From an uncultured Ignavibacteria bacterium (GTDB lineage: Bacteria; Zixibacteria; MSB-5A5; WJJR01; JAJRUJ01): a stretch of 64,000 nucleotides of DNA. Both the position numbers and the translations under genes were made by a program. The stretch is from the NCBI GenBank assembly GCA_964461835.1, contig CAYWVO010000012.1, positions 2,478 to 66,477 on the forward strand, given 5' to 3'. The notes under the pieces are model-generated. The model saw nothing but the letters and a program-made list of their open reading frames with translations, did not search any database and had not been told where the DNA came from. Shown one piece after another: positions 3,434 to 63,689 of the stretch (position 1 is its first letter; each line of letters starts with the position of its first letter).

Positions 3434-3829
3434 GAAGGGCGACTCGATGACGAAATCACGGAGCAAGAACTCGAAGCGGTTCATATACAGCCGGGCGAAC
3501 GAATTCTCCTTAAAACACGAAACTCTGAAAGCGAGTGGAGCCAGGACGATTTCCGAGAGGATTTTGTATACATTGCCGACAATGCTGCGGAGTTTCTCAG
3601 TGACTGCCGCGTCCGGACCATCGGGATCGATTATTTGTCGGTAGGCGGATATCACGCCGACGGGGATAAAGTTCACCGCACATTGTTGAGCGCAGGCGTT
3701 GTTATCATTGAGGGACTGAACTTATCCGGAATCAGCGCCGGTGAGTATGAATTGATTTGTTTGCCTCTGCGATTGGCCGGAGCCGACGGTGCACCTGCAC
3801 GCGCTGTGATCAGATCACAATCGCAGTAA
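3434..3829 (+). pseudogene. cyclase-family (kynurenine-formamidase-like) protein, C-terminal ~130 aa only; N-terminal catalytic part is absent or degenerate
   Basis: Manual translation of frame 2 from the TGA at 3431: ...GERILLKT...DFVYIADNAAEFLSDCRVRTIGIDYLSVGGYHADGDKVHRTLLSAGVVIIEGLNLSGISAGEYELICLPLRLAGADGAPARAVI. This matches the cyclase-family C-terminal half. No frame in the upstream 185 nt (back to the SDR gene) shows the HxGTHxDAPxH part. Confidence 0.5.
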
Positions 3830-3847
3830 CCATTATGGGAGGAAAGC

Positions 3848-4830: not shown

Positions 4831-4891
4831 TAGCGACTCTCTGTTTCAGTCATCCGCAACGCTTTACTGTGTCCAGCTCTTGGCCCTTGCC

Positions 4892-4920
4892 AAAAAGGGC
4901 ATATTCTTATACATTAATAT
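4892..4920 (+). promoter_or_regulatory. possible sigma70-type promoter upstream of the giant peptidase gene (TTGCCA-17 nt-TACATT)
   Basis: TTGCCA aaaagggcatattctta TACATT read directly in the 240-nt intergenic region ahead of the ATG at 5074. Consensus-like spacing. Promoter consensus may differ in this lineage. Confidence 0.25.
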
Positions 4921-5073
4921 GGGTTTTTCAGTTACCACAGCCTGTCCCGGGGAGGAGTTACGGGATGTGATCTCTGGCGCGGGAGGCAGTGCCATATCCT
5001 TCAGAGAATGTGAACAAATTCGCAATATTTATCGACATGGTCATGACAATGGCTGCATGGATTTCGGGGGTTT

Positions 5074-8000: not shown

Positions 8001-11000
8001 AAGTACCCGCAGTTGGCTGGAGTCCCCGGAAATTGTGGTTGGCCCCGACGCCCAACTGACTTTCTGGGATTGGTTCTCGGTGCCGAACTACGGCGTGGAT
8101 GGACTCCATGTCATTGTTACCGTGGCCGGCTCCAATAATCCGGACACCCTGGATTTTATCGGTACCGGCGGCGCCCTGGACTCCGCGCTGATTACCGGCA
8201 ACAGCTGGACAAAAGAAGAATATGACTTGTCGGGTTACGCACCAGGAACCAGGGTGAAAGCGCGGTTTGCCTTTTCATCCGACAATGACGCCGATGAAGA
8301 TGAGGGATTCTATATCGATGATGTCCGACTCGAAAGCACACCTGATTATGATTTGAACGTTAATCCGACCCGTATTCTGCAACGTGGCGGAGCCGCCGAG
8401 ACCGTAACCAGTCGAATCCATGTGCACAACACCGGCTTCTGGGAGGACACGTTTTCTCTTGAAGTCTTTGACAATTGGTTGCCGACGGCCATTTGGGATG
8501 CCTCCGGCAGCGCCGAGCTTACGGAAATTTCCTCAGTGGCACCCGGTGAAGTAGTCACCTTGCTCGTGCAGGTGAACATTCCGTCCGGTACGCCGGCAAT
8601 GATCGACAGTGCCCGCATACGTTTTACTTCAGAAAATGACCCGAGCCGTTCGGCCCAAGCGTGTGTGGTAACTACGTCAGAGGGTGGCGCAGCAAGTGCT
8701 CCCTGGCGGGAGTCATTTGCCGGAGGGCCCATCTCACCGCCACAATGGCCGATGTCTGAATGGGCGGAAATCAGCGACGGCGGCCTGTATGCGCCAACAC
8801 CCCCCGAGGTTGCGGAACTGGAACACATTGGCTACCTGCTCTCCCAGCGGATTGACCTGTCCCAATTAACTGATGGGCAACTCGCTTTCTGGTATCGCGG
8901 CATCAACACCGGTTGGGGCGGATGGTCTGGACCGTCGGATTTAAATACCCAGTACTTAAACGATGCTGGGCAATGGAAAGTACTAAGTTACATCTCTGGT
9001 TCCAGCGGAGAAAGCTCCGTTTACCGAGAAAAAATCCTGTCCCTGCCGAATGATGCCTTGCACGATGCATTTCGGGTGCGGTTTAACGCAACCGGTAACA
9101 TGTCCGGCAAATGGCTGCTGGATGATATCTATATCGGCCCGCGTCGGGATTACCATGTCACCTGCACCTTTGATTATATGCCGATTTATGGGGTATCCGG
9201 TGACCCCATTCCGCATGACTTGCAAATATTCAATCGGGGATCAGAGCCGGATAGTTATCTGCTGGAGACTGTCTCCGGTGTCTGGCCTATCCGTTTTCTG
9301 GACAACGGTCAGGAAATATCCGAAACTGACGTAATCGATCCGGCGCAATCGATCACGATCGAAGTGGAAGTGACCATTCCGGAAACTGCGCTGGTCAATG
9401 ATCTGGATACAACACTGGTGGCGATCACCTCTGTGGGCGATGCCGTAGAGTGTCGGCAGGCAGTATATCAAACATCGTGTCTGGGCGGAGTGGCGGATAT
9501 CCCCTGGTGTGATTCCATTGCTTCCTCGGTCCTCTCCGATGAAAAATGGCCGTTGCGTTCGGGCGTCCAAGTCGGTTCGGATCCCTATGCCCCGGCGGGA
9601 TCGTGGACCATGGTCGCGGGTGGTTCGGATACTGCCTACTCGCAGTTCATCGATTTGTCGGAGGTGGACGAAGCCATGCTGGATTTTTATGCGCGGGCCG
9701 GAGGCAGTTTTATCATGCCGGGTCCCGATGAGCGCATAACGATTGCTTACCGCGCTACCGATGGCTCCTGGCACGATTTGACAACGCTCAGCGGCGGTGG
9801 ACGATACCGTTCGCAGTTTGATCGACATTGCATGTCCTTGCCGGTCGACGCACTCGGCGATCGCTTCCAATTTCGCATCGGCTGTGATTGCGAGACACGC
9901 TGGTATTTCGATGATTTTAAAATCGTGTTAACACCGCATTGTGAGATTACCTCTGATGTCCTCGATTTTACGCTAAACCCGGGAACGGAGCAAACAGCAC
10001 AAATCTATCTGGATAACACGGGCTCTGGCACGCTGGAATATCGGATATCAGTCATTCCTGCGGCGGTGACCATGTCGGCCCTGCTGGCAAGAATGATCAA
10101 GGCGACCGATCACGATCCACTGTCCGCGGCTTTACGCACACCGGCTGAGACCTTCGCCTGCGATTGGGGGGGCCCGGGTGCTGGCGGGTATCTCTGGATT
10201 GACAGTGACGAACCATACGCCCCGGCATTCGAATTTGTCGACATTGCGGGCATCGGTGAACCGTTAGCCCGTCTCGATACCAAGTTTTATGATACTGCAC
10301 ACCTTGGATTCGAATTTCCCTACTATGGTGAGGTGTACACCGAGGTCCTGGTCAGCGCCTATGGCTATCTGCAGTTTGGTGACCAACCCCTGCTGTCATC
10401 CTGGATGGCACTGCCGATTCCCCACTCCATCTCACCCAACAACGTCTTGTTCTGGTGTTATGGTGACTATGAAACGTTGGGAGATGTCTATGCCTACTCA
10501 GATGACTCAACGGCGATACTTCAATTAAACGGATTTGGCCAGGAGGGCTCGTCATGGTATCAGGCAACAGCGCAGGTCGAATTGCGTGCGAATGGACGAA
10601 TCGCTTACCGCTTCCTGGAATTTGGCGACGGCTTTGTTACGAAGGAGTGTGGCGTTGGTATCGAGGGGCCGACCGGCAACGAAGGTCACGGGATCGTCTT
10701 TTACGTCAATCCGGTGCAAAACGACCCGCAATACCTCCGGGATAGTTTACAAATTATCTTCTACCCACCCCCGGATTGGATCTCACTCGACTACCCGGTG
10801 GGTACCGTGGCGCCGCAAACTCTGCGCTCGGTGTCGGTCGACTTTATCACCGATGAGCTCCCGCCGGGGGATTATGATGCAATCCTGCGTTTTGATTTGA
10901 ATGATCCCGATGCTGCCGCGAATCCCTGGTTCGTGAACTCCCGGGTAACCGTTCTGGACACATCGTCCTGCTATTGCCCGATGGGAGATCTGAATCTGGA

Positions 11001-11260: not shown

Positions 11261-12757
11261 TTAAGCGCGATTAGTCTGCTCAGTCAACTTCGCCAGTTTG
11301 CGAACCGGGACATTATCCCGTTCTCGGGGTGTCAAGCGCCAGGTCCAGTTGCCGTTACTGGTTGCCGGGGCATTCATCCGTGCTGAAGCGGGCAGGCCGA
11401 GAACATCCTGCATCGGAACAATGGCCAACCGGGCTTTCGAGCGCCAGGCCAGTTCAATGAATTCCCAGTGCACATTGTCCGGGTAAATCTCATGCCCGAC
11501 GTATTCGGCAAGCCGCTTTAAGTCTTTTTTGGTCGCCTCCGTCTCATACCAGCCGATGACCGTGTTGTTGTCATGGGTCCCGGTATACACGACGGCGTTC
11601 TCTTCATAGTTATGCGGCAGGTACGGGTCGTCATCATCACCGTTGCGAAAGGCGAACTGCAAGACTTTCATGCCGGGGAAATTATAGCGTTTCATCACCT
11701 TTCGCACATCAGCGGTAATCGAGCCCAAGTCCTCCGCCACTAAAGGCAACTCAGGAAAATACCGTTGCAGTGTGGTAATAAAGTCGTCCACCGGCGCCTT
11801 GACCCATTGCCCGTTCATCGCCGTTTTATGATGGGCGGGGACCGCCCAGTAAGCGACCAGCCCACGGAAGTGGTCAATGCGCACGAGATCAAACAACCGG
11901 AACATATTCCGCAGCCGCGCCGCCCACCATTGGTATCCTTCGGCCCGCAGTTTGTCCCAATCATAGACGGGGTTTCCCCAGAGCTGACCGGTCTTGCTGA
12001 AATAGTCGGGCGGGACACCGGAGACTACTTTTGGGCGCTTCCTCCGGTCCAGCTTAAACATCCAGGTGTTGGCCCAGGTGTCGACCGAATCGTAGTTGAC
12101 GTACATGGGGATGTCCCCGAAGATCTGGATTTTCTTTTGATGGGCATACTCTTTGAGCTGCAGCCATTGGCGATGAAACAGCCATTGTTCGAATTTGATT
12201 TGGTCGATTGCGTCCCGGTATTCATCGGCAAAGGCGGTTAGTGCCTTATGATCACGGTTGCGCAGTTTTTTCGGCCACTCGGTCCAGATTGCGCCATCAT
12301 GTTCACGTTTGCAGATGATGAAAACAGCAAAATCATCCAGCCAGCCGGATTCCTGTTCACAGAACTCCGTGAATTCTCCGTTTCGCCTGGCGTCAGAAAA
12401 GCGCCGCCATGCTGCATGGAGAAGCCGACGTTTAAAAGCTGCCACCACCTCGTAGTCGACTCGCTCTACGGGAAAGTCCGGGGACGCCGCGATATCCTCA
12501 AGGGAAGCAAAACCTTGCTCCAGCAGTAGATCGGGACTGATGAGTAATTCATTGCCGGCAAACGCCGACGAGCAACTATACGGTGAATTGCCTTGACCCA
12601 AATCAATCGGATTGAGCGGCAGGACCTGCCAGACACGTTGATTCGCGGCTTCCAGTAAATCGACAAACTCAAATGCCGCCGGCCCCAGATCGCCGATTCC
12701 GCAGGAGGAGGGCAAAGAGGTAACGTGCATCAAAATGCCGGCCGCGCGTTTATCCAT
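11261..12757 (-). CDS. malQ: 4-alpha-glucanotransferase (amylomaltase, GH77)
   Basis: MDKRAAGILMHVTSLPSSCGIGDLGPAAFEFVDLLEAANQRVWQVLPLNP is the classic MalQ N-terminus. 498 aa. Confidence 0.85.
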   Translation of the reverse strand: MDKRAAGILMHVTSLPSSCGIGDLGPAAFEFVDLLEAANQRVWQVLPLNPIDLGQGNSPYSCSSAFAGNELLISPDLLLEQGFASLEDIAASPDFPVERVDYEVVAAFKRRLLHAAWRRFSDARRNGEFTEFCEQESGWLDDFAVFIICKREHDGAIWTEWPKKLRNRDHKALTAFADEYRDAIDQIKFEQWLFHRQWLQLKEYAHQKKIQIFGDIPMYVNYDSVDTWANTWMFKLDRRKRPKVVSGVPPDYFSKTGQLWGNPVYDWDKLRAEGYQWWAARLRNMFRLFDLVRIDHFRGLVAYWAVPAHHKTAMNGQWVKAPVDDFITTLQRYFPELPLVAEDLGSITADVRKVMKRYNFPGMKVLQFAFRNGDDDDPYLPHNYEENAVVYTGTHDNNTVIGWYETEATKKDLKRLAEYVGHEIYPDNVHWEFIELAWRSKARLAIVPMQDVLGLPASARMNAPATSNGNWTWRLTPRERDNVPVRKLAKLTEQTNRA

Positions 12758-51711: not shown

Positions 51712-51985
51712 CTACTTCAGCAGCAGCATCTTGCGGGAGTCCGTAAACTCTCCTGCTTGTAAACGATAGAAGTACACGCCGCTGGGATTTTCTGCTGCCT
51801 CCCAGACCGTGCTGTAATTGCCGGCCGGGAGTTGTCGGTCTAATACCGTCTCCACCAGTTGTCCCCGGACATTGAAGACCTCCAGCGTGACTCGCGATGC
51901 CTTCGCCAATCTGAAGTGAATCCGCGTTGAAGGGTTAAACGGATTGGGGGTATTCTGGCGCAGGGAGAACTCAATGGGGAGTGTA
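51712..51985 (-). other. T9SS type-A C-terminal sorting domain (Por_Secre_tail-like)
   Basis: The 'NPFNPST', 'L.V.N..G..V' and 'GVYFY.L' motifs read directly in the last ~90 aa of the ORF. Confidence 0.65.
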
Positions 51986-53682
51986 CCTTCCTCACTGATC
52001 ACACCAGTGATCTGATCGATGGTCACGTGGGCGGTCGCCTGTAAACTCCCGGAGGAATCCTCTGCCGACACCGTGAACTCGCCCAGCGTGGGGCCGGCCT
52101 CGTATATACCGTCTTCGCTAATAGTACCACCCGTGGCGCTCCACGTTGGGGTGAACGCCATTACCCCACCCACTTGATCGATTCCTTCAGCAAAAAACGC
52201 AACAATAGCTCCGGGATCGATGGTGACCGAATCAGGCACAACATGAATAGCGGCAAGAGTCGGTTGATACGCCATCACGAGTGTAACCGCGGTGTCCGCC
52301 CGGTTCGGATCGGACACCGATTCGCACGCGGCCGTTAGGCTCGAACCGGTCAGATCGCCGGCACCGGGTGGAATCGAAAGGACGACTTCGACCAGACCGG
52401 GATCGCTGCCGGTCAGTGCTACGGTAGCAGATGCGGGCGAACTCAGCCACCCTTGTGAATCAGAGAGGTCAATATCGACAGTGGCGGTGGATCCTGACCA
52501 GTCTCGCACGGCAACCATAATCGTATCAACCGTGCCAAGGGTGAAGAAGAGTGTGTCGGCGCCAAAGCTTGCCGTCAGAGCCGGCACCTCATCAAGCCAT
52601 TCACTCACCTGCACACCGCTGGAGATCGGATCGCCGCTGCCCGTACCTTCACCGGAAGGTTCGTCAATCGCACCCCACCAGTTGCCCTCAGCAGCAACAC
52701 TACCCGCACCCCCATTGGCGATACCGAAATCAGTGTTGCCCGAAACGATACTGCCCTCGACAACAAGCGGTCCATCGAGGTTCCACATGATGCCGGGCCC
52801 CGCATTATCGGTAATTGCCGCTCCACGGATCTCGGATTCGTCACCAATGGCGAAATCGAGCGTTTCAGACTGGGGAAAGGCGGCACTAATTCCCTGCGCG
52901 CTATCTTCCCGCGGTTTCCCCAGGAGACCACCCAGGCCATTCGTGCACAGCGTTACGGCGCCAAGCTCCAAAATGCCGCCTTCTTCATTTTCATAAAAAT
53001 AGTTACGTTCCGCCGGATCCGCGCCCCCGATCACGTTTGCCTTGCTGTAGTTCATATTCAAGCCCCACTTATTACCGTGGAACGTACACCCCTCCACGAC
53101 GCTCGTGTTACTATTGTTATGCAAAAGCGCCAGCGCGGAATTGGTGAAATTCCGGAACTCAATGTTGCGGATTTCATGGCCACCGCTCGAGAAGACTAAT
53201 CTGGAGACATTGGGCGTGCCGAGACCGTCCAGCACGACATTGGTCGACCCATCTATCTGGCCGTCGATAATCACGGGTGCGGAGATATTGGGAAAAAAGT
53301 TGGTCGTTTTGGAGATCACCGACGCCGACGCCGCGAAACGTATTTCCGTCAGCCCCCCTGAGTAGTTGGCATTCTCAATTGCCGCACGCAAGGTCGGGTG
53401 GAAGAAAATACCGTCATCCAGATTGGTATCGGGGAGATCACTGGGGTCAGTAATAACATAGGTATCCACGGGCGTACGGCCGTCCAAGTGCTCGGGCCGG
53501 CTCAGCATCGCCAGCGCTCGTTTGCTCACACTAGTGGTCGTTTTTGTTTTTTGCGGGGGTTCGGCCTCAGCCGAGGATGACGCACCTCCCAGTGAAGCAC
53601 AGATCATCAGTACTGCTATCGTCATAGGCTTAACGTGCGACCACACAACTGACCTCCAACCGTTTACCGTCGCCTGAATCAA
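51712..53682 (-). CDS. T9SS-sorted secreted protein: right-handed parallel beta-helix repeats plus Big_2 Ig-like domain plus C-terminal Por sorting domain
   Basis: Signal peptide present. Repeats: ...NNSNTSVVEGCTFHGNKWGLNM.... Big_2: VHVVPDSVTIDPGAIVAFFAEGIDQVGG. C-terminus: LRQNTPNPFNPSTRIHFRLAKASRVTLEVFNVRGQLV...GVYFYRLQAGEFTDSRKMLLLK. Confidence 0.7.
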   Translation of the reverse strand: MIQATVNGWRSVVWSHVKPMTIAVLMICASLGGASSSAEAEPPQKTKTTTSVSKRALAMLSRPEHLDGRTPVDTYVITDPSDLPDTNLDDGIFFHPTLRAAIENANYSGGLTEIRFAASASVISKTTNFFPNISAPVIIDGQIDGSTNVVLDGLGTPNVSRLVFSSGGHEIRNIEFRNFTNSALALLHNNSNTSVVEGCTFHGNKWGLNMNYSKANVIGGADPAERNYFYENEEGGILELGAVTLCTNGLGGLLGKPREDSAQGISAAFPQSETLDFAIGDESEIRGAAITDNAGPGIMWNLDGPLVVEGSIVSGNTDFGIANGGAGSVAAEGNWWGAIDEPSGEGTGSGDPISSGVQVSEWLDEVPALTASFGADTLFFTLGTVDTIMVAVRDWSGSTATVDIDLSDSQGWLSSPASATVALTGSDPGLVEVVLSIPPGAGDLTGSSLTAACESVSDPNRADTAVTLVMAYQPTLAAIHVVPDSVTIDPGAIVAFFAEGIDQVGGVMAFTPTWSATGGTISEDGIYEAGPTLGEFTVSAEDSSGSLQATAHVTIDQITGVISEEGTLPIEFSLRQNTPNPFNPSTRIHFRLAKASRVTLEVFNVRGQLVETVLDRQLPAGNYSTVWEAAENPSGVYFYRLQAGEFTDSRKMLLLK

Positions 53683-53849: not shown

Positions 53850-55829
53850 CTAAAATCCGAATTCTTCATTGCGACCATCGGACGCAGCAGGATCACTGCT
53901 CCCGGCGACAAGATGTCCACTTGGTTGAGAGTAGCGGCGAGATTGGTGGCACGTCCCGCATTCCGCCAGATGCGCGTGATCGGCGGTATCCTGCTTCTGC
54001 TGATGGCAGGGAATGCAGATGCGGTGCATCGCCACACCGAATGAGGAGGCATACATCAAATTGACCGTGCTGTCCGGCTGTCCGATCAACCACATATCCT
54101 CTTGGTGGCAGGAGTAACACGTGTGGGCGTTCTGCCCGGTCTTAGGTCCCGGCGCGGGATGGCATTCTCGACATGAATGATTTTCCGGATGCAAGCCGGA
54201 AACATCCGCTGTTTCCGCTACCGCTGCAATATGGAACGTGTGATCGAAAATTTTCGTGGGATAGGCCATGTGACGATGACAGCGCGAACACGGCGTGGAT
54301 CGGTCATGAGGCAGTGATACATGATGACAATGCGCGCAGGCGGTATCGCCCCCCAGCCGCCGTTGGTGGTCTTTGTGGGCGAAAATGGTGGCTACGCCGC
54401 CCCGATCACCGTCGATCAGCAAGGTATCCCGTTGGACATCCAACCCAAATGCCGGCTGAATTGGTGTTTCGCCATCATATGGATTTTGATAGCCGGGATA
54501 CAGTATCGCCCAACTGAATGGAACCGTGAAGACTGCAATCAACGTAACCCGGCGCAAACCATCGGTGAATACCGTGTGCCAGACATGGGAAATCTTGTCG
54601 AACGAGGGCACAAACATCCTGACCAAGCTACGTCGGTCGCGGGAAAACTCCGTCATAATCGGCAGGTTTTCCACCGCGAACATGAAGATCAACCCGGCGG
54701 CGGCCACCACGCCGACACATAATACCCACTCGATCAGGGACGGGAAATAAACTGTGCCCGCATCACGAAAATACCCAAAGATGCCCACCGACAGTCGGTT
54801 GAGCGCTAACCCGGAGGCCGCAGCAAACGAAGTCCAGCCAAGGCCACTCGGTGAACGACGAACGCGCGGAATGCTCATCAAAACGACCGGGAGGATTGCG
54901 GTGAGTCCCAATTCTGCCAGATAGAGCCAACTTTCCCACGTCCCGGCGATGAGTGTACCCCAAGCGCCGGTGCGGAACAGATCAAAAATCTTCAGGCCGA
55001 GATACACCCCCAGTACGCCCGCAGCAATGGAGGCCAGGGAGCTCAGCATCGGCATCTCTTTCCCTGGCACTCGCTTGGGCTTTCGCTCGGCATCTTGCGG
55101 GTTGATCACACAGGCAGTGCTCTCCGACACTGGACCGAACACGGAGACAGGATCGTACAGTCGCGCATACAAGATTTTAATCAGGATGATGGTCATCATC
55201 CCGGCGCCCATCGCAGAAATAATGAATAACAACGGCAGCAACGAAGTGTACCACAATGGATGCAACCGTTGCGGGGTAACCAGGAACAGCGAACCCAGCG
55301 AGGAATGGTGCAAGCCGGATAAAGAGATCCCAAAGACCACGATGCCAAAGGCAATTCCCTCCAGCCAGTGGAATATTTTACTGCTCCCCCACCGTTGGCC
55401 AACCGTGGGCACAATTTCCAGCATCGTAACCGTGAAATACAGCGCAACACACCAAAAGACTTCGAAGAGAAAGGAATTTTCATTCCACATCACAAAGGGA
55501 TGCCAGAACCGATGCGGTAGCCCGATATCAAACAGCAGCGCAAACAGCGAGGATCCATAGCCCAGGAACGCCACCAGGACCGCCATTCGGACCAGCGGCT
55601 TAAAACGTTTCAGTTGCAGAACATAGACGAGAATGCCCAACGTAAAGCCACCCGTGGAGAGCGCCACGCCGGCGACCATATTGAGGATTTTCCAAAGTCC
55701 CCACGGTACATCATCGCTGAGATTCGTGGTCGCGCCAAGCCCAAACCACAACCGGAAAATGGCGGCGAAGAGTCCCCAAAACACCAAAAACCAGAGGATA
55801 TCTTTGATTAATCGTCGTCTGCCTTCCAT
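53850..55829 (-). CDS. NrfD/PsrC/DsrP-like polytopic membrane subunit fused to a C-terminal hexaheme cytochrome c domain
   Basis: ~10 predicted TM helices over ~480 aa. Six CxxCH motifs then follow in ~150 aa: CAHCH, CSRCH, CRECH, CYSCH, CIPCH, CGTCH. Confidence 0.7.
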   Translation of the reverse strand: MEGRRRLIKDILWFLVFWGLFAAIFRLWFGLGATTNLSDDVPWGLWKILNMVAGVALSTGGFTLGILVYVLQLKRFKPLVRMAVLVAFLGYGSSLFALLFDIGLPHRFWHPFVMWNENSFLFEVFWCVALYFTVTMLEIVPTVGQRWGSSKIFHWLEGIAFGIVVFGISLSGLHHSSLGSLFLVTPQRLHPLWYTSLLPLLFIISAMGAGMMTIILIKILYARLYDPVSVFGPVSESTACVINPQDAERKPKRVPGKEMPMLSSLASIAAGVLGVYLGLKIFDLFRTGAWGTLIAGTWESWLYLAELGLTAILPVVLMSIPRVRRSPSGLGWTSFAAASGLALNRLSVGIFGYFRDAGTVYFPSLIEWVLCVGVVAAAGLIFMFAVENLPIMTEFSRDRRSLVRMFVPSFDKISHVWHTVFTDGLRRVTLIAVFTVPFSWAILYPGYQNPYDGETPIQPAFGLDVQRDTLLIDGDRGGVATIFAHKDHQRRLGGDTACAHCHHVSLPHDRSTPCSRCHRHMAYPTKIFDHTFHIAAVAETADVSGLHPENHSCRECHPAPGPKTGQNAHTCYSCHQEDMWLIGQPDSTVNLMYASSFGVAMHRICIPCHQQKQDTADHAHLAECGTCHQSRRYSQPSGHLVAGSSDPAASDGRNEEFGF

Positions 55830-56620
55830 TCCGCCGGATCCTTCTCTTTGTGCTCTTGCTGTGACCGATTAGTTGACTGTTTCTCCCGGTCGATGGTCAT
55901 GCGCCGTCGAATAATCCAGTTGACCCCCAACAGGCCGGCAGCCACGGTCAAGCCGATAAAGGGAGTTTTGTGTACGAGTGGCTCGGTAAGTGATGGAATC
56001 GGCGGTTGGTCTTGTTCCGGCCACCCCAAGGCACTCAGGTCAACGTCAGAAATATAAAGAACCGACGTACCGCCAAACTCATGTTCTCCCCAGATGTGCT
56101 GCTGATATGTATGTGGTTCGGTGCGCAGTCGACTCTTGGCTTGTTTGAGCAACGTGCGCCGATTGCCATACACCAGCGCCTGGTTAGGGCAGGTAGCCAC
56201 GCAGGCCGGCGGTAGATCGTCCTCCAGCCGTTCAAAGCACATAGCGCACTTCCTGACCAGCGGTGTAGTAGAACCCCATTCATACCGCGGAATATGAAAT
56301 GGGCAGGCCAGCATACAGTAGCGACAGCCAATGCATTTATCGGGATCATACACCACCGGTCCCTCCGGCGATTTGGTCATGCCCCCGACCAGGCACGCCG
56401 AGACGCAACTCGGCTCCAGGCAATGCATGCAGCTTTTGCGCGCAAATCGGCCGTCTGCAACCAGCACCAAGGAAAGAAATCGATTATCGGAAAGACCGTC
56501 CCGGGAAGTCAGGCGATCGAGATCGGCTTTGTCTTGATCCAGGTTGTTCGCCGTAATGCAGGCGGCGACGCATTTCTCACAACCGGTGCATTTGGTGACA
56601 TCGACCAGGATTGCTTGCAC
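55808..56620 (-). CDS. 4Fe-4S ferredoxin-type electron-transfer subunit (DsrO/HmcB/HybA/PsrB-like) with C-terminal TM anchor
   Basis: Four Cys clusters (CTGCEKCVAAC, CMHCLEPSCVSAC, CIGCRYCMLACP, CAMC...CVATCP). The C-terminal hydrophobic helix is FIGLTVAAGLLGVNWII. Confidence 0.75.
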   Translation of the reverse strand: MQAILVDVTKCTGCEKCVAACITANNLDQDKADLDRLTSRDGLSDNRFLSLVLVADGRFARKSCMHCLEPSCVSACLVGGMTKSPEGPVVYDPDKCIGCRYCMLACPFHIPRYEWGSTTPLVRKCAMCFERLEDDLPPACVATCPNQALVYGNRRTLLKQAKSRLRTEPHTYQQHIWGEHEFGGTSVLYISDVDLSALGWPEQDQPPIPSLTEPLVHKTPFIGLTVAAGLLGVNWIIRRRMTIDREKQSTNRSQQEHKEKDPAEWKADDD

Positions 56621-57318
56621 TAGACCCGTGCCTCCTTCCCGAACAACGCCTCGGCAACCTTATCGCCCGCGCCGGGTCGCAATTGCCAGTGAACCGCCGA
56701 AATGCGATCGAAGAAATACAATACGATGTGGGCCAGCTTCGTGAACGGAATCAACACGAACAGGACCTCGGCGCTTAACAGGTGGATCAAAAACATCGCG
56801 TTCCACGGCAACGGATTGGCCGACGGATGGGCTGCCAGGTACCCTGAGGCAAACGGCAGGAGCACCATAATCAGAAGAATGTAGTCGATCGGCCGGCTCA
56901 TGGCGCGAATCCGCCTGATGAACATCCGGTGCCCCACCAACACAATCAGGCAGCCGATGGTGCCCAACGTTAACCAGTCGGCCAGGTCCTGCCCGATAGC
57001 CGGCAGGTTGACCCCGAGGAATTCCTCCCACAAGACGATATGAGCCGCCAGAAAAATCGGTACGATCAGGATACCGATATGGAACAGGAACGACACCGTG
57101 GAAAAAACCCGCGTGCCGCGAATAAAATGCTTGAAGGGAACAGCCCACGTGACCGTTTCTTTAATAATGTCCCGCCAGGGAGCATTCCGCAGGCGTCGCC
57201 CTTTATGCACCAACAGGGTGTACATTTGAATTATGACGAGGCGCAACAGGCCCAAGAGCATAATCAAAAAGGTGATGGCAAAGAGTGGGCCTTTGGCGAA
57301 TTCAATCCATGTGTCCAC
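56620..57318 (-). CDS. NarI/DsrM/HdrE-like integral membrane b-type cytochrome
   Basis: 232 aa, 5-6 TM helices, conserved His in helices 2 and 5 (FHIGILIVPIFLAAH; FLIHLL). 1-nt stop/start overlap with the FeS gene. Confidence 0.65.
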   Translation of the reverse strand: MDTWIEFAKGPLFAITFLIMLLGLLRLVIIQMYTLLVHKGRRLRNAPWRDIIKETVTWAVPFKHFIRGTRVFSTVSFLFHIGILIVPIFLAAHIVLWEEFLGVNLPAIGQDLADWLTLGTIGCLIVLVGHRMFIRRIRAMSRPIDYILLIMVLLPFASGYLAAHPSANPLPWNAMFLIHLLSAEVLFVLIPFTKLAHIVLYFFDRISAVHWQLRPGAGDKVAEALFGKEARV

Positions 57319-57367
57319 AACCGTTCCCTCAGTCCGTGATCATCTGTTCGCGTCATTCCGGTCCCGT

Positions 57368-58807
57368 TTACATTTCGAGTAACGCGGCCTCTTCCTTGCG
57401 TTCGTCAGCGGATTTTGCGCCGGGAATTTCAATCGCCCGCAATATGAGGTCATGTAAACCCATGACCTTGCACGGCAACTTGTAGTACTCCACCAGCTCT
57501 TTTAACTGTTTTTTGCAATTGGCGCAGGGCGAGATAATGATATCGGCCCCAGTCTCGCGAATCTGGTCCGCCTTGACCTTGCCCCCGACCCCCATGCGGA
57601 ATTCGTGAATCTCATCCACGGAGACCAGGCCGCCACCGCCACCACAGCAATAGTTGTCCCGCCCGTGAGGTTCCATCTCAGCAAAGTCCTTCACAAAAGA
57701 TTTGAGAATGCGCCGGGGCTGTTCGATGATCCAACCGGAGCGGGCAATATTGCAGGGATCGTGATACGTCACCCGCTCGGTGACGATATTCGGATTCAGG
57801 GTAATTTTCCCCTTTTCGAGACAGTCCAGAGTGTATTCCATAAAATTCAGCACCGGCCGGGAGTTCTGACCGCCGAAGACCGGCACGAAATCATGCGCCG
57901 AGCGGGAGGCATGCCCGCACTCGCCGATCAGCAACGTGTTCCCGCGAAGTCGTTCCGCCTCGCCGACCAATTGCTGAATGATCTTTTCCAGGTGCCAGTC
58001 GCTGTAAAAGAGGCCATAATTGATACCGTCATAGTTGCAGGTGCCGATGGTCCAGCGGTCCCAGTCCCCCGCCGCATACAGGACAATGGCATTCCCCATG
58101 AGCGTTTCCGGTTCGAGCAGGTAATCGCTGACGGCGCAGAAGAAGACATATTCCCGATCGTATTGATCGACGGGAAACGTCAGCCTGAGGCCAAAAGAAT
58201 CTTCGAGTTCATCGGCCAGGAATTCCAACGTATCCAGCAGCGCCGCGACCGGAACCTGTGACGTATTATGAGTTTCCCCTTCCAGTTGTTCCCGTGTGCT
58301 GACCTGGAGCGCTTTCGGCACAATATTCAGCATGCTGAGGATGTAGCGTCCCAGCCGGGTCATCAAACCATGATCGACGCCCATCGGACATTCCCGAGTG
58401 CAACGACGGCACGCAGTACACCGGTAAAACAGGTCCAGCATTTCATCGATCATCGGCTCGGTCAGCTCAAAATCATTTCCGAACCGCGCGCGCAGCCAGC
58501 CGCCGAGCGTGAAGTACCGCTTGTATACATTTAACAGGAGATCTGTTCGGTAGCAGGGGATGTCTCGCGGATCCCCGGTCGCCAGAAACACCGGACACGT
58601 CACCGAACACCGATTGCATTTGGCGTTCGAGGTGCAATATGAGTCGAGCAACGCCCGGTAATCGCTGTACTCCAAAATCGCGGCGAAGGCCTGTAAAAAG
58701 CGATCGACACGATTTTCGGTGACCGGGTTTTCAATATAGTAGGGATACTGACGGGGTTGTTCCGTCGCAGTTTGTTCGGTTGCGGTAGCTGAGGTTGCTG
58801 CTTTCAT
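57368..58807 (-). CDS. HdrD/DsrK-like iron-sulfur protein with two CCG domains
   Basis: N-terminal ferredoxin-like Cys motifs (CNRCSVTCP; CTACRRCTRECP). C-terminal CCG motifs (HDPCNIARSG...NYCCGGGGG...ISPCANC). Start moved to MKAATSA, which has a GGAG RBS. Confidence 0.7.
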   Translation of the reverse strand: MKAATSATATEQTATEQPRQYPYYIENPVTENRVDRFLQAFAAILEYSDYRALLDSYCTSNAKCNRCSVTCPVFLATGDPRDIPCYRTDLLLNVYKRYFTLGGWLRARFGNDFELTEPMIDEMLDLFYRCTACRRCTRECPMGVDHGLMTRLGRYILSMLNIVPKALQVSTREQLEGETHNTSQVPVAALLDTLEFLADELEDSFGLRLTFPVDQYDREYVFFCAVSDYLLEPETLMGNAIVLYAAGDWDRWTIGTCNYDGINYGLFYSDWHLEKIIQQLVGEAERLRGNTLLIGECGHASRSAHDFVPVFGGQNSRPVLNFMEYTLDCLEKGKITLNPNIVTERVTYHDPCNIARSGWIIEQPRRILKSFVKDFAEMEPHGRDNYCCGGGGGLVSVDEIHEFRMGVGGKVKADQIRETGADIIISPCANCKKQLKELVEYYKLPCKVMGLHDLILRAIEIPGAKSADERKEEAALLEM

Positions 58808-59289
58808 CTGCTTTCTCCATGCCCGATTTTTAGTCCGGTTTTTCGAAGTGGCAAAGACTGTACCGAACCGCAATTGCAATTGGCAAAACTGGCTGCCCGG
58901 TAATGCAGGATGGATCCTGGGAAGAGAAGATCGTCAAATCCTTTACTTATTATAGACAATGTGACACTTGATGTGAATGTTACCGGGAATAGTTATGACA
59001 TGACTGTTTTGGAGATGACACACTGGTCGTTACCACCGGGCAATGATTGTTGCAGGTGTTGCAACGAAATGTCGCATCGCAACATCGCATGCAATAGGTT
59101 GTACTACATGCGACGCCAATGCTGCGACGCCGCTAGTTAATGTTATGAGCACGGGGTCGCTGAATAACTAGCCGGTGGAACAATACATTCTTCGCATGCG
59201 AAATCGCGCGGGTTGGCTATACCGTGAAACCCGATATTATCTGCCAACTTGTCAATCAGTTGTGTCTGGCCGGTGCTTTGCGCACCGGT

Positions 59290-59304
59290 TGGCACAACGA
59301 TTGC
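59290..59304 (+). promoter_or_regulatory. sigma-54 (-24/-12) promoter TGGCAC-N5-TTGC
   Basis: ttGGcacaacgatTGCc read directly, with exact GG...GC spacing. It lies ~30 nt upstream of the AGGAGG/ATG (59335) of the NifX-like gene, and a sigma54 activator is encoded 1.7 kb downstream. Confidence 0.55.
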
Positions 59305-59334
59305 CAATTCATACGACAGAACAAGGAGGATGCC

Positions 59335-60345
59335 ATGAGGATCTGCGTTCCCCTGTTAGGAGAACGTGTCGCACCGCGCTGGAGTATCGCCGATGTCGCG
59401 CTGTTCCTCACGATCCGTCGGGCTCAGATTACCGCGCGCGCGCACCTGCCGGTAACCGGCATCACCTGGTCGAAGTTTTTGCGCATCCTGATGGATCGGG
59501 ATGTCGATACGCTGGTCTGCGGCGGCATTACCTTTGAAGATCGCGAGGCAGTGCAGCAACGCGGTATCGAGGTGATTCATAATGTTGCCGGGACTGCGGA
59601 AGAAGTAGTGGCCGCGCTCTGCCACGGTACGCTCAGCCCGGGATTCGGCATCATGTCCGATCGAAGCAGACAACAAGCGGCGGCAAAATCCTCTCCACAA
59701 ACCGAGATAGCGGCATCTCCGAGTTCATCCACGCTGGAACCACCTCTGGACTGTTTGGCCTGTTCCGACCGACGATGTTGCCATGGCGAGCCTTGTCAAC
59801 CCAAGGCAGTACGGCGAATTCGCCGTCCGGATACGCTGACGCGACACGTTCTGGAATCAGCGCAGGACGTTATCGCCGAGAACGAACGGAAACTCTGTCG
59901 CATTGCGGAACTGGTGTATTTCTGCCTCGGGATGAAGTACCGGAAAATTGGCATTGCGTTCTGTATCGAATTATTCGAACCCACGGAAATCCTGGCCGGT
60001 GTCCTCCGCAGGTTTTTCGAGGTGTACCCGGTGTGCTGCAAAGTGGGCGGGATGATCATGAGAGATCCCTACGCAACGGACGAACACTCCGTGACCACCG
60101 GACCGTCGTCGCACCTGTCCTGTAATCCGCTGGCGCAGGCGGAGATTCTCAACAACATCGGGACCGATGTAAACCTCATCGTTGGGCTTTGTATCGGCGT
60201 CGATAGCGTATTCACCGAGGCGAGCAACGCGCCGGTGACAACACTGTTTGTAAAAGACAAGTCGTTGGCGAACAATCCCATCGGCGCCCTCTACTCGGAT
60301 TACTACCTCAAGGAGGTGACCCAGGCGACAATCCCCGTTGGCTAG
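59335..60345 (+). CDS. NifX/NifB-type FeMo-cofactor/iron-sulfur cluster-binding domain fused to a DUF1847-like Cys-rich domain
   Basis: MRICVPLLGERVAPRWSIADVALFLTI...VDTLVCGGITFEDREAVQQRGIEVIHNVAGTAEEVVAAL (dinitrogenase FeMo-co-binding fold). The C-terminal half carries conserved Cys pairs (CLACSDRRCCHG; YPVCCKVGG; LSCNP; GLCIGVD). Confidence 0.6.
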   Translation: MRICVPLLGERVAPRWSIADVALFLTIRRAQITARAHLPVTGITWSKFLRILMDRDVDTLVCGGITFEDREAVQQRGIEVIHNVAGTAEEVVAALCHGTLSPGFGIMSDRSRQQAAAKSSPQTEIAASPSSSTLEPPLDCLACSDRRCCHGEPCQPKAVRRIRRPDTLTRHVLESAQDVIAENERKLCRIAELVYFCLGMKYRKIGIAFCIELFEPTEILAGVLRRFFEVYPVCCKVGGMIMRDPYATDEHSVTTGPSSHLSCNPLAQAEILNNIGTDVNLIVGLCIGVDSVFTEASNAPVTTLFVKDKSLANNPIGALYSDYYLKEVTQATIPVG

Positions 60346-60410: not shown

Positions 60411-60932
60411 ATGGCTATTCCAACATTACGGGCGGTCGGCTTTTGCGCCCATTACTCCAAGCAAGGGGACTGGGCCTTCGACTATGCCCTGCGGCTATCG
60501 TGTCTGCACCAGTTGCAACTCAACGTGTTTCATTTCCTCAGCGATCCATACGACCCCGAAGACACGTTGTCTGATCAACTGACGGCGAAAGAGAAAGCCG
60601 CTCTGGCAATCGAGCGCGAACGCGAGTTGCGGCTCTACTATGACCAGCGGGCCGGCGATTATCTGGACGTCGGTTTCCGTCTCTGTGAGGATAACGAATG
60701 GACCGAACTGCATCGGTGCCTGGTCATCCGGGAGTTCCAGGTACTCGTCCTGGGGTATACTGAGCGTGGGGTCACCTTTGCCGGCCGGCCCATCGAGACA
60801 TTTGCTGACAGTTTCGTCTGCCCTGTCGTGTTGGTCGGGCCGGATAATCCGGATCAGTACTATCTGAACAGTCGAGCGGATCTCATCGCGGATAATCTCG
60901 GCCTCCGTCACGGCGTGTGGCAGAAAATTTGA
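60411..60932 (+). CDS. universal stress protein-like (adenine-nucleotide alpha-hydrolase fold)
   Basis: MAIPTLRAVGFCAHYSKQGDWAFDYALRLS...VLVLGY...PVVLVGPD. GGAGG RBS at 60399-60403. Confidence 0.45.
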   Translation: MAIPTLRAVGFCAHYSKQGDWAFDYALRLSCLHQLQLNVFHFLSDPYDPEDTLSDQLTAKEKAALAIERERELRLYYDQRAGDYLDVGFRLCEDNEWTELHRCLVIREFQVLVLGYTERGVTFAGRPIETFADSFVCPVVLVGPDNPDQYYLNSRADLIADNLGLRHGVWQKI

Positions 60933-61090: not shown

Positions 61091-62404
61091 ATGCACCCCA
61101 AGTTGAGCGAACTTATTTTCAACAGCATCAGTGATGGTGTGTTTACCGTGGACAAAAACTGCATCATCACCTCCTTCAATCGTGCCGCCGAACAGATTAC
61201 CGGTTTCGAGGCGTCGGAGGCCGTGGGCAAGCACTGCTTTGATATTTTCCGCACGGAACTCTGTCATAAACGCTGTGCGCTGAAAGACACGCTCAAGACC
61301 CATGAGCCGATCGAGAATGCCCGGTTGACCATCATCACGCGCGAGGGATGCGAGTTGCCGATTAAAGTCACCACCACCATGCTTAAAGATGAGGCCGGTA
61401 ACCTGATCGGGGCGGTGGAGTTTTTCCGGGATATCACCGAAATCGAGCAATTGCAGCGGCGTCTGGATGAAAAGCGCGCGCTGGATAATATCGTCAGCGT
61501 TAATCCTGAAATGCAGCAGCTGATTGGGTTGTTGCCAGATGTTGCCGAATCGGAATGTAACGTCCTGATTCAAGGCCCCAGCGGGTGCGGGAAAGAACTC
61601 TTGGCGCAAATCATTCATCATTTGAGTCCCCGAAAGTACGGCCCCTATATTCGCATAAACTGCGCCGCCCTGCCGGCAACACTGTTGGAATCAGAATTAT
61701 TCGGCTATGAGAAGGGGGCTTTCACCGATGCCAAGCGTGATAAGCCGGGACAGTTCTGCCTGGCCAATGGGGGAACGCTGTTGTTAGATGAAATCAGTGA
61801 GATGGACACCGCCTTACAGGTAAAACTGCTGCGGGTGCTCAACAACGGCGAATACCAACCATTGGGCTCCAGCAAAACCATGCGGACCGATGCGCGCATC
61901 ATTGCCGCTACCAACGCAGATTTGCAGGCGGCCATCGCCGACGGACGGTTCCGCGAGGATCTGTTTTATCGGATTAATGTCGTCGAGTTGAATATCCCGC
62001 CATTGCGCGATCGCCCGGAAGACATCCCGCTGTTGGTGGACCATTTTATCAGTTTGTTCAAGAAGAAAACGCACAAGGCAATCGATGGTATTTCGCCCGA
62101 AGCACTGGCCGTGCTGCGGAAATATGCCTTCCCCGGCAATGTCCGTGAGCTGGAAAATACCATTGAACATGCGTTCGTGATGTGTCATGGCCGGCAGCTC
62201 GACGTGGAACATCTCCCGAATCATATCATTGAGAACGGAAAAGGGACCAACGGCATTGTCCCTCAGCGGCGCAATGAAAAAGACGTGATCCTGGAAACCT
62301 TACGCCGCCACCGCGGCAATCGCACCCAGGCAGCGAAAGAACTGGGTGTACACCGGTCTACCCTCTGGCGAAAAATCCAATCGTACGGGATCAATGCGCT
62401 GTGA
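61091..62404 (+). CDS. sigma-54-dependent transcriptional activator with N-terminal PAS sensor domain
   Basis: PAS: IFNSISDGVFTVDKNCIITSFNRAAEQITGF. AAA+: VLIQGPSGCGKELLAQIIH...ESELFGYEKGAFTDA. C-terminal Fis-type HTH: QAAKELGVHRSTLWRKI. Confidence 0.85.
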   Translation: MHPKLSELIFNSISDGVFTVDKNCIITSFNRAAEQITGFEASEAVGKHCFDIFRTELCHKRCALKDTLKTHEPIENARLTIITREGCELPIKVTTTMLKDEAGNLIGAVEFFRDITEIEQLQRRLDEKRALDNIVSVNPEMQQLIGLLPDVAESECNVLIQGPSGCGKELLAQIIHHLSPRKYGPYIRINCAALPATLLESELFGYEKGAFTDAKRDKPGQFCLANGGTLLLDEISEMDTALQVKLLRVLNNGEYQPLGSSKTMRTDARIIAATNADLQAAIADGRFREDLFYRINVVELNIPPLRDRPEDIPLLVDHFISLFKKKTHKAIDGISPEALAVLRKYAFPGNVRELENTIEHAFVMCHGRQLDVEHLPNHIIENGKGTNGIVPQRRNEKDVILETLRRHRGNRTQAAKELGVHRSTLWRKIQSYGINAL

Positions 62405-62556: not shown

Positions 62557-62988
62557 TTAATGAGGAGGGCGATTGCTGCGCCGAAACAGTGTCTGGGTCC
62601 CGGCGTCAAGGTTCGGCGCGACGATATCGGCACGCTCGAGCTCCTTCCTAACTTCGGACAATCCCAACAGCGAGCCGTTCGTCAGTATCGCAACCTGTGC
62701 CGCATAGCGGTCTTTGATCTGCGTGATCAACCACCCGATATCACGCGACAGCGTTGGCTCGCCATCACCGGAGAACGTCACTACATCGACCGCTTCCTGC
62801 CGCAACCGTTCTTCGATTTGTCGGAGGATATTGTCTTTGGGGAAAAAACGTTCACGCTCTACCTGACAGGGGTTGGTAAGTCCCAGTTGGCAATAGACGC
62901 AATTGTAGGTACACGTCTTCGCCGGGATCAAGCTCACTCCGAGAGAGCGGCCAAACCGCCGTGAACTAACGGGTCCATAGACATACAT
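62557..62988 (-). CDS. radical SAM protein (CX3CX2C), probably 3'-truncated
   Basis: YGPVSSRRFGRSLGVSLIPAKTCTYNCVYCQLG and the glycine-rich SAM motif VTFSGDGEPTL. Only 143 aa; family members are usually >220 aa. Confidence 0.5.
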   Translation of the reverse strand: MYVYGPVSSRRFGRSLGVSLIPAKTCTYNCVYCQLGLTNPCQVERERFFPKDNILRQIEERLRQEAVDVVTFSGDGEPTLSRDIGWLITQIKDRYAAQVAILTNGSLLGLSEVRKELERADIVAPNLDAGTQTLFRRSNRPPH

Positions 62989-63016: not shown

Positions 63017-63448
63017 TCAGATCTCTGATACCTGCCAGAAACGGGCCTCGCTGCGCACTTTCACCGTTCCTTCCTGCCGCACTGCCGCTCGCAGCGTGAG
63101 CAGCTTGAGCTTGCGTTGGGTGATTGCACAGGTTACCGCCAGCTCTTTATCGGCCAGCACCGGCTGGAGATAGCGAATATGTAAGTCGGCGGTGACCCCG
63201 GCCATACCATGTGCGAACAGGCAATGGGTCATCGCCGAATCCAGTACCATGGCCAAAACGCCGCCGTGCATGATGTTTCGATATCCCTGAAACTGTTTCC
63301 CGCCCGCAAACGCGACATGCATACTTCCATCGGCCTGCGGCGAAAACTGCAACCCGAGTCGAAAAAGATCATTCTGACCGCAAACGACACAATGCGGGTG
63401 CTGTTCGGCGGCAACGGTCGCGTAGTTCGTCTCTGGCTCAGCGCTCAT
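63017..63448 (-). CDS. PaaI/4HBT hot-dog-fold thioesterase
   Basis: HCVVCG...MHGGVLAMVLDSAMTHC. Start set at MSAEPE to avoid overlap with the ferredoxin gene. Confidence 0.55.
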   Translation of the reverse strand: MSAEPETNYATVAAEQHPHCVVCGQNDLFRLGLQFSPQADGSMHVAFAGGKQFQGYRNIMHGGVLAMVLDSAMTHCLFAHGMAGVTADLHIRYLQPVLADKELAVTCAITQRKLKLLTLRAAVRQEGTVKVRSEARFWQVSEI

Positions 63449-63464
63449 ACATTCAATCCTTTGG

Positions 63465-63689
63465 TTACATGGTGAATTTCCCGGCGTCTGGAGGAATCTC
63501 ATTCACCAAGAACAACGCCTGGCCGGGACAGGAATCCACACAGCTCGTACACAAGATACAATCATCACTGCGATGCGGGAAGCCCCGCCACATCGTGATT
63601 GCCTCGACCGGGCATTGCTCCGCGCAGGTGGCGCAGCCGCCACATGCATGGATATCCAGTCGAATTGCCATTTCATTCCCGGAGTGCAC
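63465..63689 (-). CDS. 2x[4Fe-4S] ferredoxin
   Basis: CGGCATCAEQCP and CILCTSCVDSCP motifs in a 74-aa ORF. Confidence 0.7.
   Translation of the reverse strand: MHSGNEMAIRLDIHACGGCATCAEQCPVEAITMWRGFPHRSDDCILCTSCVDSCPGQALFLVNEIPPDAGKFTM

Follow-up and report, generated by a model that had tools for sequence, protein, structure and literature searches.

An Hmc-like operon of uncultured bacteria in which the NrfD-type membrane subunit is fused to a six-haem cytochrome domain

The window analysed for this report, a stretch of 64,000 nucleotides from an uncultured Ignavibacteria bacterium (contig CAYWVO010000012.1), raises the question of whether a quinone-interacting membrane subunit of the NrfD type can share one polypeptide with a multihaem cytochrome c, and of what kind of electron-transfer complex such a protein might be a part. 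An earlier, sequence-only reading of the window had noticed four co-directional genes resembling those of the Hmc and DsrMKJOP complexes, the last of them with six CxxCH haem-binding motifs at the C-terminus of an NrfD-like protein. Our analysis confirms that this observation is real and that its first interpretation was right in outline, and shows its scope to be broader than had been seen: the four genes constitute an operon, here written F-E-B-C::A, which belongs to a conserved module of seven genes and probably encodes an Hmc-type complex. The four genes, and the three segments of the fusion protein (TM11 being the eleventh transmembrane (TM) helix), are as follows.

57368-58807, minus strand: F, 479 amino acids (aa), a cytoplasmic DsrK/HmcF/TmcB-like CCG iron-sulfur protein.
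56620-57318, minus strand: E, 232 aa, a NarI-type membrane cytochrome b, HmcE/TmcC-like.
55808-56620, minus strand: B, 270 aa, an HmcB/HybA-like protein with four [4Fe-4S] clusters and a C-terminal tail anchor.
53850-55829, minus strand: C::A, 659 aa, comprising an NrfD domain, TM11 and a six-haem domain.
54666-55829, minus strand: C domain of C::A (residues 1-388), ten TM helices of the HmcC/HybB-type NrfD.
54501-54560, minus strand: TM11 of C::A (residues 424-443), an AlphaFold2 helix at 424-443 with a hydropathy peak at 425-443, matching the anchor of a separate cytochrome at locus L084 (see below).
53850-54500 (stop codon included), minus strand: A domain of C::A (residues 444-659), a periplasmic six-haem domain of the cytochrome c3 family, HmcA/NhcA-like.

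The boundaries of 53850 and 58807 given for this gene set in the sequence-only reading proved to be exact. In the list of open reading frames (ORFs) of the window F extends from 57368 to 58879, but its true start is the ATG at 58807, which is preceded by the ribosome-binding site GGAGAAAG, and independent gene calls likewise give a protein of 479 aa. E and B overlap by 1 nt and B and C::A by 22 nt, so that the sole gap in the operon is one of 49 nt (57319-57367). Because this gap is too short for a gene, HmcD, the small hydrophobic subunit of Hmc, is absent from the operon. Families were assigned with Pfam and NCBIfam models, with bit scores given here against the cut-offs in brackets, and the assignment of the four products as CCG, NarI-like, iron-sulfur and NrfD proteins was borne out for each of them.

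The evidence that C::A is a single protein comes from the gene itself as well as from its many relatives. The protein is recognized by the Pfam model NrfD (43 bits; cut-off 25.8) and, at its C-terminus, by Cytochrom_CIII, and exactly six CxxCH motifs, with first cysteines at C498, C514, C553, C571, C605 and C624, lie in the same uninterrupted frame of 659 codons as the NrfD domain. Contigs assembled from two different sequencing runs both encode this 659-aa protein in identical form. In a word-indexed search of 5.8 billion proteins, C::A had 887 matches, the best 120 of which were inspected; with lengths of 625-709 aa, these match 93% or more of the query at 53-81% identity, and in 118 cases carry exactly six CxxCH motifs. 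An exhaustive HMMER search of 1.84 billion cluster representatives (50% identity) yielded 2261 matches, and among the best 150 of these, 48 have six CxxCH motifs and a few have 10, 12 or 15. The linker and TM11 can be aligned throughout a set of 30 family members. Since the homologues conserve the full-length form with its six motifs, and since independent assemblies agree, the fusion is genuine and conserved, and a frameshift or assembly artefact, which the sequence-only reading had named as what might undo its proposal, is excluded. The description of the architecture as uncommon holds among characterised systems; in metagenomes it is abundant, as the cluster representatives and a paralogous family described below indicate. 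No description of an NrfD-cytochrome fusion, or of this operon, was found in the searchable literature, which is not proof of novelty, and current annotation pipelines label the family only as 'Ni/Fe-hydrogenase cytochrome b subunit' or 'NrfD/PsrC anchor'.

The haem domain is of a recognizable kind. A profile made from it matches the 16-haem cytochrome HmcA (1z1n, 3e-17; also 2e84, 1h29 and 1gws) and nine-haem cytochromes (1duw and 19hc), and the NCBIfam model for HmcA matches 26 of the 30 aligned C::A proteins; a search of PDB sequences with the whole fusion protein gave no match, and only the profile of the haem domain reached HmcA and NhcA. All six CxxCH motifs are invariant in the 30-member alignment together with H485, H488, H503, H530, H533 and H602, and the six distal histidines thus provide the count expected for six bis-His haems. 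No conserved methionine or additional cysteine occurs in the haem domain in the same alignment.

The membrane part is an NrfD subunit of the HybB/HmcC branch. It scores 230 bits against HmcC (550), 208 against HybB, 112 against QrcD and 34.5 against DsrP (350), passes the gathering score of the NrfD/PsrC family (PF03916), and resembles ActC of alternative complex III in Foldseek comparisons (TM-score 0.63-0.69). An AlphaFold2 model of C::A has ten helices in residues 3-388 and the eleventh at 424-443. The cytoplasmic loops hold 13 lysine and arginine residues and the periplasmic loops 3, in the window protein and likewise on average over 30 homologues. Through TM11 the chain returns to the periplasm from the cytoplasmic side, where the NrfD domain ends. 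Since the haem domain must be periplasmic, the N-terminus is placed in the cytoplasm, and the charge distribution agrees with this; the periplasmic location suggested in the sequence-only reading is supported by eleven helices and a strong positive-inside bias. Identity across the family is 80% in the periplasmic loops and 39% in the cytoplasmic ones, which suggests that a quinone site and a docking surface have been conserved on the side of the periplasm. Alignment of the family with E. coli HybB shows Tyr99, Glu148 and His184 to be invariant, with lysine or arginine at the position of Arg89; replacement of these HybB residues impairs hydrogen oxidation in a protonophore-sensitive manner (NrfD review, PMC8076601), and the C domain has kept the residues of HybB that are associated with proton-coupled turnover. 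In the definition of the same 2021 review of the family, NrfD-like subunits possess 8-10 helices and are free of cofactors, and fusions are not mentioned; C::A, with its 11 helices and its covalently attached six-CxxCH domain, departs from that definition. A putative twin-arginine translocation (Tat) motif at the N-terminus of C::A (GRRRLIKD) was rejected, the twin arginine not being conserved in homologues.

A possible origin for the fusion is suggested by its closest unfused relative found, a 385-aa NrfD protein (P0145) that is 51% identical to the NrfD part of C::A and is encoded at locus L084. The cluster there (3437-8601) consists of genes for a 528-aa c3-family cytochrome, a signal-less iron-sulfur protein, the 385-aa NrfD protein, a 267-aa six-haem cytochrome and a universal stress protein (Usp), without cytochrome b or CCG genes. 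The genes for the NrfD protein and the 267-aa cytochrome are separate and slightly overlapping, with that of the cytochrome immediately downstream. The cytochrome, which is anchored by a TM helix, aligns to residues 427-628 of C::A (29% identity, E = 4e-22) with its haem motifs in the same order and its N-terminal anchor on TM11. Because the alignment includes both TM11 and the haem domain, C::A looks like an NrfD gene that became joined to its downstream gene for an anchored cytochrome.

Of the other three subunits of the operon, F matches the Pfam models CCG (4.7e-15) and Fer4_8, and scores 284 bits against DsrK (400), 213 against HmcF (750) and 189 against TmcB; it contains two four-cysteine ferredoxin motifs, one complete CCG motif (C...CCG...CxxC) and the sequence GECGH, and the motif cysteines and GECGH are all invariant in 61 homologues. 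A 2024 study of DsrMKJOP reports a single CCG motif and the T/GECGH cysteine as common to DsrK, HmcF and TmcB, and considers this cysteine to be probably essential for disulfide reduction (PMC10861901). E scores 137.5 bits against TmcC (240) and 126.9 against HmcE (275), is matched weakly by Pfam Nitrate_red_gam, and has no match to DsrM; its five predicted TM helices and four histidines invariant in 53 homologues (His80, His93, His179 and His197) fit a NarI-type dihaem cytochrome b. B matches Pfam Fer4_11 (2.7e-21) and scores 236 bits against HmcB (420), 199 against HybA and 95 against DsrO (200), and all 16 of its cysteines, enough for four [4Fe-4S] clusters, are invariant in 61 homologues.

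The location of B calls for closer discussion. B ends in one TM helix, a tail anchor, followed by RRR, and this helix and its RR(R) flank align with the tail anchor of HybA; B also aligns with FdnH. At the other end, B and its relatives begin exactly where mature E. coli HybA begins, with the 38-residue Tat signal missing from the alignment. Signal-less iron-sulfur proteins with a C-terminal tail that are paired with HybB-like subunits have been proposed to hitch-hike on a hydrogenase that carries the Tat signal (bioRxiv 10.1101/2023.11.02.564894). On the basis of the tail-anchor homology and the conserved periplasmic loops of C::A, we prefer a periplasmic B that would be exported by some other route; the remaining reading is that B is cytoplasmic.

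When the operon is set against known systems, the comparison with Hmc and DsrMKJOP that the sequence-only reading had drawn stands, since the best NCBIfam models are HmcC, HmcB, TmcC/HmcE and DsrK/HmcF and the haem profile leads to HmcA and a nine-haem cytochrome. Both likenesses are relevant, but three of the four genes are closer to Hmc than to Dsr. With HmcABCDEF of Desulfovibrio vulgaris the operon shares homologues of five of the six subunits (an HmcA-type haem domain, HmcB, HmcC, HmcE and HmcF with GECGH) and the same overall layout from periplasm to cytoplasm. It differs in that HmcA is a separate protein with 16 haems, whereas here there are 6, fused to the C-terminus of NrfD through an extra helix; in lacking HmcD; in its gene order (F-E-B-C::A as opposed to A-B-C-D-E-F); in B, which has no signal peptide; in F, which is closer to DsrK than to HmcF; in its sigma-54 activator, described below, where Hmc is regulated by Rrf1/2; and in its hosts, which are from the FCB group, Acidobacteriota and Gemmatimonadota and not from Desulfovibrio. 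The scores against the Hmc models are the best or near-best obtained and yet lie far below the cut-offs.

DsrMKJOP offers the same two-module design, with a cytochrome b and CCG pair (M-K) and a combination of cytochrome c, iron-sulfur protein and 10-TM NrfD (J-O-P), and F has the DsrK-type single CCG motif and GECGH. However, DsrJ is a separate trihaem protein with a His/Cys haem, in contrast to the fused, all bis-His hexahaem domain, the similarity to DsrO and DsrP is weak, and neither the window nor the 10 kb flanking each of 80 related loci showed a linkage to dsrAB or dsrC. Nhc-type modules, and those composed of a tail-anchored ferredoxin, a HybB-like subunit and a periplasmic cytochrome, of which the L084 cluster is one, also combine an Fe-S/NrfD pair with c3-family multihaem cytochromes; they have neither cytochrome b nor CCG protein, and each cytochrome in them is a polypeptide of its own. 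Alternative complex III (ActA-F) has a 10-TM NrfD with a TM-anchored multihaem cytochrome (ActA) and an iron-sulfur subunit on the periplasmic face, but ActC is only 14-17% identical to the C domain, the operon encodes neither an ActB molybdopterin-like domain nor ActF (a second NrfD), ActD or ActE, and alternative complex III has no cytochrome b/CCG module. The operon cannot be counted as Hmc or DsrMKJOP in the strict sense, for its scores do not reach the cut-offs, it lacks HmcD, and its cytochrome is neither a separate 16-haem nor a separate trihaem protein; it represents a distinct and unnamed family that works like both.

The operon does not travel alone. When one genome from each GTDB species was scanned, 171 relatives came to light, and the best 80 of these together with locus L001, on the Zixibacteria chromosome OY760907.1, gave 81 loci for examination. 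In tblastn searches with proteins of the window, B and E were each matched in 79 of the 81 loci, F in 73, a NifX-DUF1847 fusion protein in 66, a 173-aa protein in 63 and a sigma-54 activator in 60. Synteny of all seven genes was found in ~55 loci, the shortfalls being mostly due to cuts at contig ends; order and orientation in the module are always as in the window, and no other gene of the window is conserved with the module in these loci. The sequence-only reading had regarded the NifX/DUF1847 gene as part of an anaerobic redox neighbourhood, and it is more than that, for it joins the operon, together with the other two genes, in this conserved module. The accessory genes and the promoters associated with the module are as follows.

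59335-60345, plus strand: fusion protein of NifX-like and DUF1847 domains, 336 aa, divergent from the complex (Pfam DUF1847, 4.9e-36, and Nitro_FeMo-Co).
60411-60932, plus strand: protein with a predicted universal stress protein (USP) fold, 173 aa, with three near-invariant (at least 98%) cysteines (GFCAHYS; C-x10-C).
61091-62404, plus strand: sigma-54 enhancer-binding protein, 437 aa, with PAS, AAA+ and HTH_8 domains (Sigma54_activat, 1e-65; PAS_9; HTH_8).
58850-58865, minus strand: sigma-54 type promoter CGGTACAGTCTTTGCC, 43 nt upstream of the ATG of F.
59290-59305, plus strand: sigma-54 type promoter TGGCACAACGATTGCC, 30 nt upstream of the ATG of the NifX-DUF1847 gene (59335).

The NifX-DUF1847 protein has nine conserved cysteines (at least 98%), four of them in a CxxCx4Cx5C motif, and its NifX part has a match in the C-terminal domain of MrpORP, an Fe-S carrier; no paper that mentions DUF1847 was found in the searchable literature. 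The 173-aa protein has 1075 homologues and is ~70% identical across phyla. It has no significant match in Pfam or NCBIfam, where Pfam Usp reaches only E = 0.22, and its predicted fold derives from an AlphaFold2 model (predicted local distance difference test, pLDDT, 85) whose best Foldseek matches are universal stress proteins, with a TM-score of up to 0.68. The two cysteines of DsrC have the same C-x10-C spacing as those of this protein, which could be a redox partner of F.

The two sigma-54 promoters point outwards from the divergent intergenic region, and both recur among 65 loci: GGTAY-N5-TTGC is present in most of them at a fixed distance (~106-125 nt) before the tblastn start of F, and GGCAY-N5-TTGC just upstream of the DUF1847 gene, again in most. 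An initial sigma-54 candidate, GGCAG-N6-TTGC at 58897, was rejected for its wrong spacing, the conserved element being that at 58865. Between the promoters, the intergenic segment 59057-59131 contains candidate activator-binding sites in the form of a direct repeat of TGCGACGCC (two copies with 14-nt spacing), the tandem TGTTGCAACGAAA/TGTCGCATCGCAA and the inverted repeat TCGCATGCAATA/TACTACATGCGA.

Within the activator's PAS domain, C49-x8-C58-x3-C62 is invariant and D51 is conserved in 92% of 47 homologues. OrpR of D. vulgaris, with C52, C61, C65 and an acidic residue (D/E) at 54, binds a [4Fe-4S] cluster that is sensitive to redox state; it switches on two divergent sigma-54 operons, and does so only when the redox potential is low (PMC8359166). 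The likeness is one of architecture and cysteine spacing: both systems have two divergent sigma-54 operons with an adjacent PAS-AAA+-HTH activator, an identical C-x8-C-x3-C triad with an acidic residue at +2, and NifX-like proteins, and MinD/Mrp-type Fe-S ATPases are frequent neighbours of the module. The orp operons differ in encoding soluble NifX-like and MinD-like proteins and not a membrane redox complex. By analogy, the PAS domain of the activator probably holds a redox-sensitive Fe-S cluster, and from the OrpR-type triad and the sigma-54 promoters we infer that the operon might be induced by anoxia or low potential. Variable neighbours in 25 of the loci are also orp-like: radical SAM proteins, a MinD-type ATPase with ferredoxin motifs, small NifX-like proteins and an Mrp-type ATPase.

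By record title, the best 80 of the 171 relatives belong to Ignavibacteria, Gemmatimonadota, Zixibacteria, Acidobacteriota (including Thermoanaerobaculia and Bryobacterales), Krumholzibacteriia, LCP-89 and Polyangia, with some further bins that are probably mislabelled. A profile of the more distant members of the family retrieves a second, paralogous family (family 2) that is 35-45% identical to C::A, and nearly all of 8000 candidates scored with this profile were significant. Both paralogues (P0036 and P0487) seem to lie on a single contig of 1.01 Mb. All of the five family-2 loci that were inspected have the F-E-B-C::A operon; the PAS sigma-54 activator is present in four of them and a NifX-like gene in three or four, and in four the operon is followed by genes for a response regulator, a PAS histidine kinase and a second response regulator. 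One of the five loci, L086 (10908-17878 on a 2.56-Mb contig), has the operon directly followed by sat, aprB, aprA, qmoA and qmoB, and this is the only link to dissimilatory sulfur metabolism that was seen.

Taken as a whole, these observations are best explained, with a probability of about 0.65, by an Hmc-type transmembrane electron-transfer complex of four polypeptides that links periplasmic cytochromes, menaquinone and a cytoplasmic thiol/disulfide couple. Gene content, fusion, conservation, the logic of the topology, motifs and promoters are matters of observation, whereas the direction of electron flow, the cytoplasmic substrate and the coupling to energy conservation are drawn from the precedents of Hmc, Dsr and Qrc, and the redox signal of the activator is likewise a deduction. 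The complex might be pictured as a periplasmic six-haem domain, all bis-His, that would be tethered by TM11 to the ten-helix quinone subunit, with the four [4Fe-4S] clusters of B located at the conserved periplasmic surface, in a position intermediate between haems and quinone site. Electrons would be carried across the membrane by the dihaem cytochrome b, E, and delivered to the cytoplasmic F, which through its single CCG motif, the site of a noncubane [4Fe-4S] cluster, and the cysteine of GECGH would reduce or oxidize a disulfide or trisulfide carrier in the cytoplasm. Quinone may cycle between the two quinone-reactive subunits and thereby conserve energy. With sigma-54 promoters and an OrpR-like activator, the complex would be made under reducing, anoxic conditions along with the NifX-DUF1847 and USP-fold proteins.

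Several points weigh against this explanation. All hosts found are metagenome-assembled genomes (MAGs), among them all of the best 80 of the 171 relatives and all named database matches. All four proteins score well below the NCBIfam equivalog cut-offs, and function can be transferred at the level of the superfamily only. The AlphaFold2 model of C::A is of moderate quality (mean pLDDT 64), better in the membrane part and poor in the haem domain. A gene for a DsrC/TusE-like substrate was found neither in the window nor in the flanking 10 kb of the 80 loci. No N-terminal extension or Tat signal was found in homologues of B, and a Tat-signal partner for B is neither present in the conserved module nor recurrent in the same flanks. 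Finally, a strong sigma-70-like site lies at 58949-58977 upstream of F, and control by sigma-54 may not be exclusive.

Among other explanations, it is rather unlikely that in these lineages the operon acts as the DsrMKJOP, a menaquinol:DsrC-trisulfide oxidoreductase with a role in the dissimilatory reduction of sulfite/sulfate or in the oxidation of sulfur, and that the fused six-haem domain has replaced DsrJ in it. F is indeed most similar to DsrK, including the single CCG motif and GECGH, the number of functional modules equals that of M-K-J-O-P, the family-2 operon of L086 adjoins sat-aprBA-qmoAB, and a rhodanese-domain gene (12095-12538) follows the operon at L001. Yet B, C and E score far better against Hmc, Tmc and Hyb models than against DsrO and DsrP, with no match at all to DsrM, and the haem ligands are His/His only, with neither a conserved cysteine nor a methionine that might serve a DsrJ-like His/Cys haem. 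Moreover, tblastn detected no homologues of sat, apr or qmo in the window or within 10 kb of any of the 80 family-1 loci, no dsr-like family recurs among the flanking genes, and the sulfur link of family 2 is confined to one of five loci.

It is also improbable that B and C::A provide the membrane anchor and the quinone module for some periplasmic enzyme, such as a hydrogenase or formate dehydrogenase, that is exported by Tat and has its genes elsewhere, and on which B would hitch-hike as has been proposed for similar signal-less proteins. The resemblance of B to HybA and FdnH without exactly the Tat signal, and the HybB-like character of C, would suit such an arrangement, but genes for a hydrogenase, a formate dehydrogenase or another protein with a Tat signal do not recur within the 10 kb that flank the 80 loci, F in the cytoplasm and the cytochrome b E, for which these enzymes have no need, are constant members of the operon, and the fused cytochrome already gives electrons a periplasmic entry or exit. 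As for the view that a frameshift, an assembly error or a mis-called ORF has merely joined an NrfD gene to a cytochrome gene, the occurrence of both parts as separate, slightly overlapping genes at L084 might be cited in its favour, but it is scarcely credible in the face of an uninterrupted ORF with an identical product from independent assemblies, of hundreds of full-length homologues (53-81% identity) from many phyla and sources, and of a paralogous family that shares the architecture.

An extension of the Hmc-type explanation, which we offer only tentatively, is that the module constitutes an undescribed, redox-switched respiratory system with a cytochrome-bearing NrfD, in which F would act on a partner from within the module (the NifX-DUF1847 protein or the USP-fold C-x10-C protein) and not on DsrC. 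Such a system might link the exchange of electrons in the periplasm or outside the cell with redox chemistry of thiols or clusters in the cytoplasm, in a context other than sulfate reduction, and would be widespread in uncultured members of the FCB group, Acidobacteriota and Gemmatimonadota. NrfD-type subunits are described as modules for quinone and for ion translocation that are free of cofactors, and what they do in DsrMKJOP and Hmc is still called an enigma (PMC10861901). A cytochrome that is covalently tethered to NrfD has a fixed stoichiometry and geometry, and the tethered form could make the whole Hmc/Dsr class easier to study with regard to structure and electron transfer. The family, which is widespread and unannotated and lends itself to experiment, is abundant in lineages of soils and sediments whose anaerobic respiration is poorly understood; its association with an OrpR-like sensor and with the NifX-DUF1847 and USP-fold proteins leads to testable ideas about when the complex is made and what is reduced.

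Some further genes around the module in the window may be mentioned. On the far side of the activator gene, a radical SAM ORF of 143 aa (62557-62988, minus strand) matches residues 1-141 of a 310-aa family and looks truncated; the 310-aa family recurs near the operon in other loci. Beyond it (63017-63689, minus strand) lie genes for a hotdog-fold (PaaI-like) thioesterase and a 74-aa ferredoxin with two [4Fe-4S] clusters, and in a few loci a gene for the thioesterase recurs close to the module. The gene directly downstream of the operon (51712-53682, minus strand) is that for a 656-aa beta-helix protein, not conserved with the operon, whose Por/T9SS C-terminal sorting domain fits a host of the FCB group. 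Farther away, the segment 44330-51532 (plus strand) encodes a DUF6175 protein, two proteins without a family match, a GrpE-like protein, a 519-aa protein of the Hsp70 family and a 405-aa protein without a family match.

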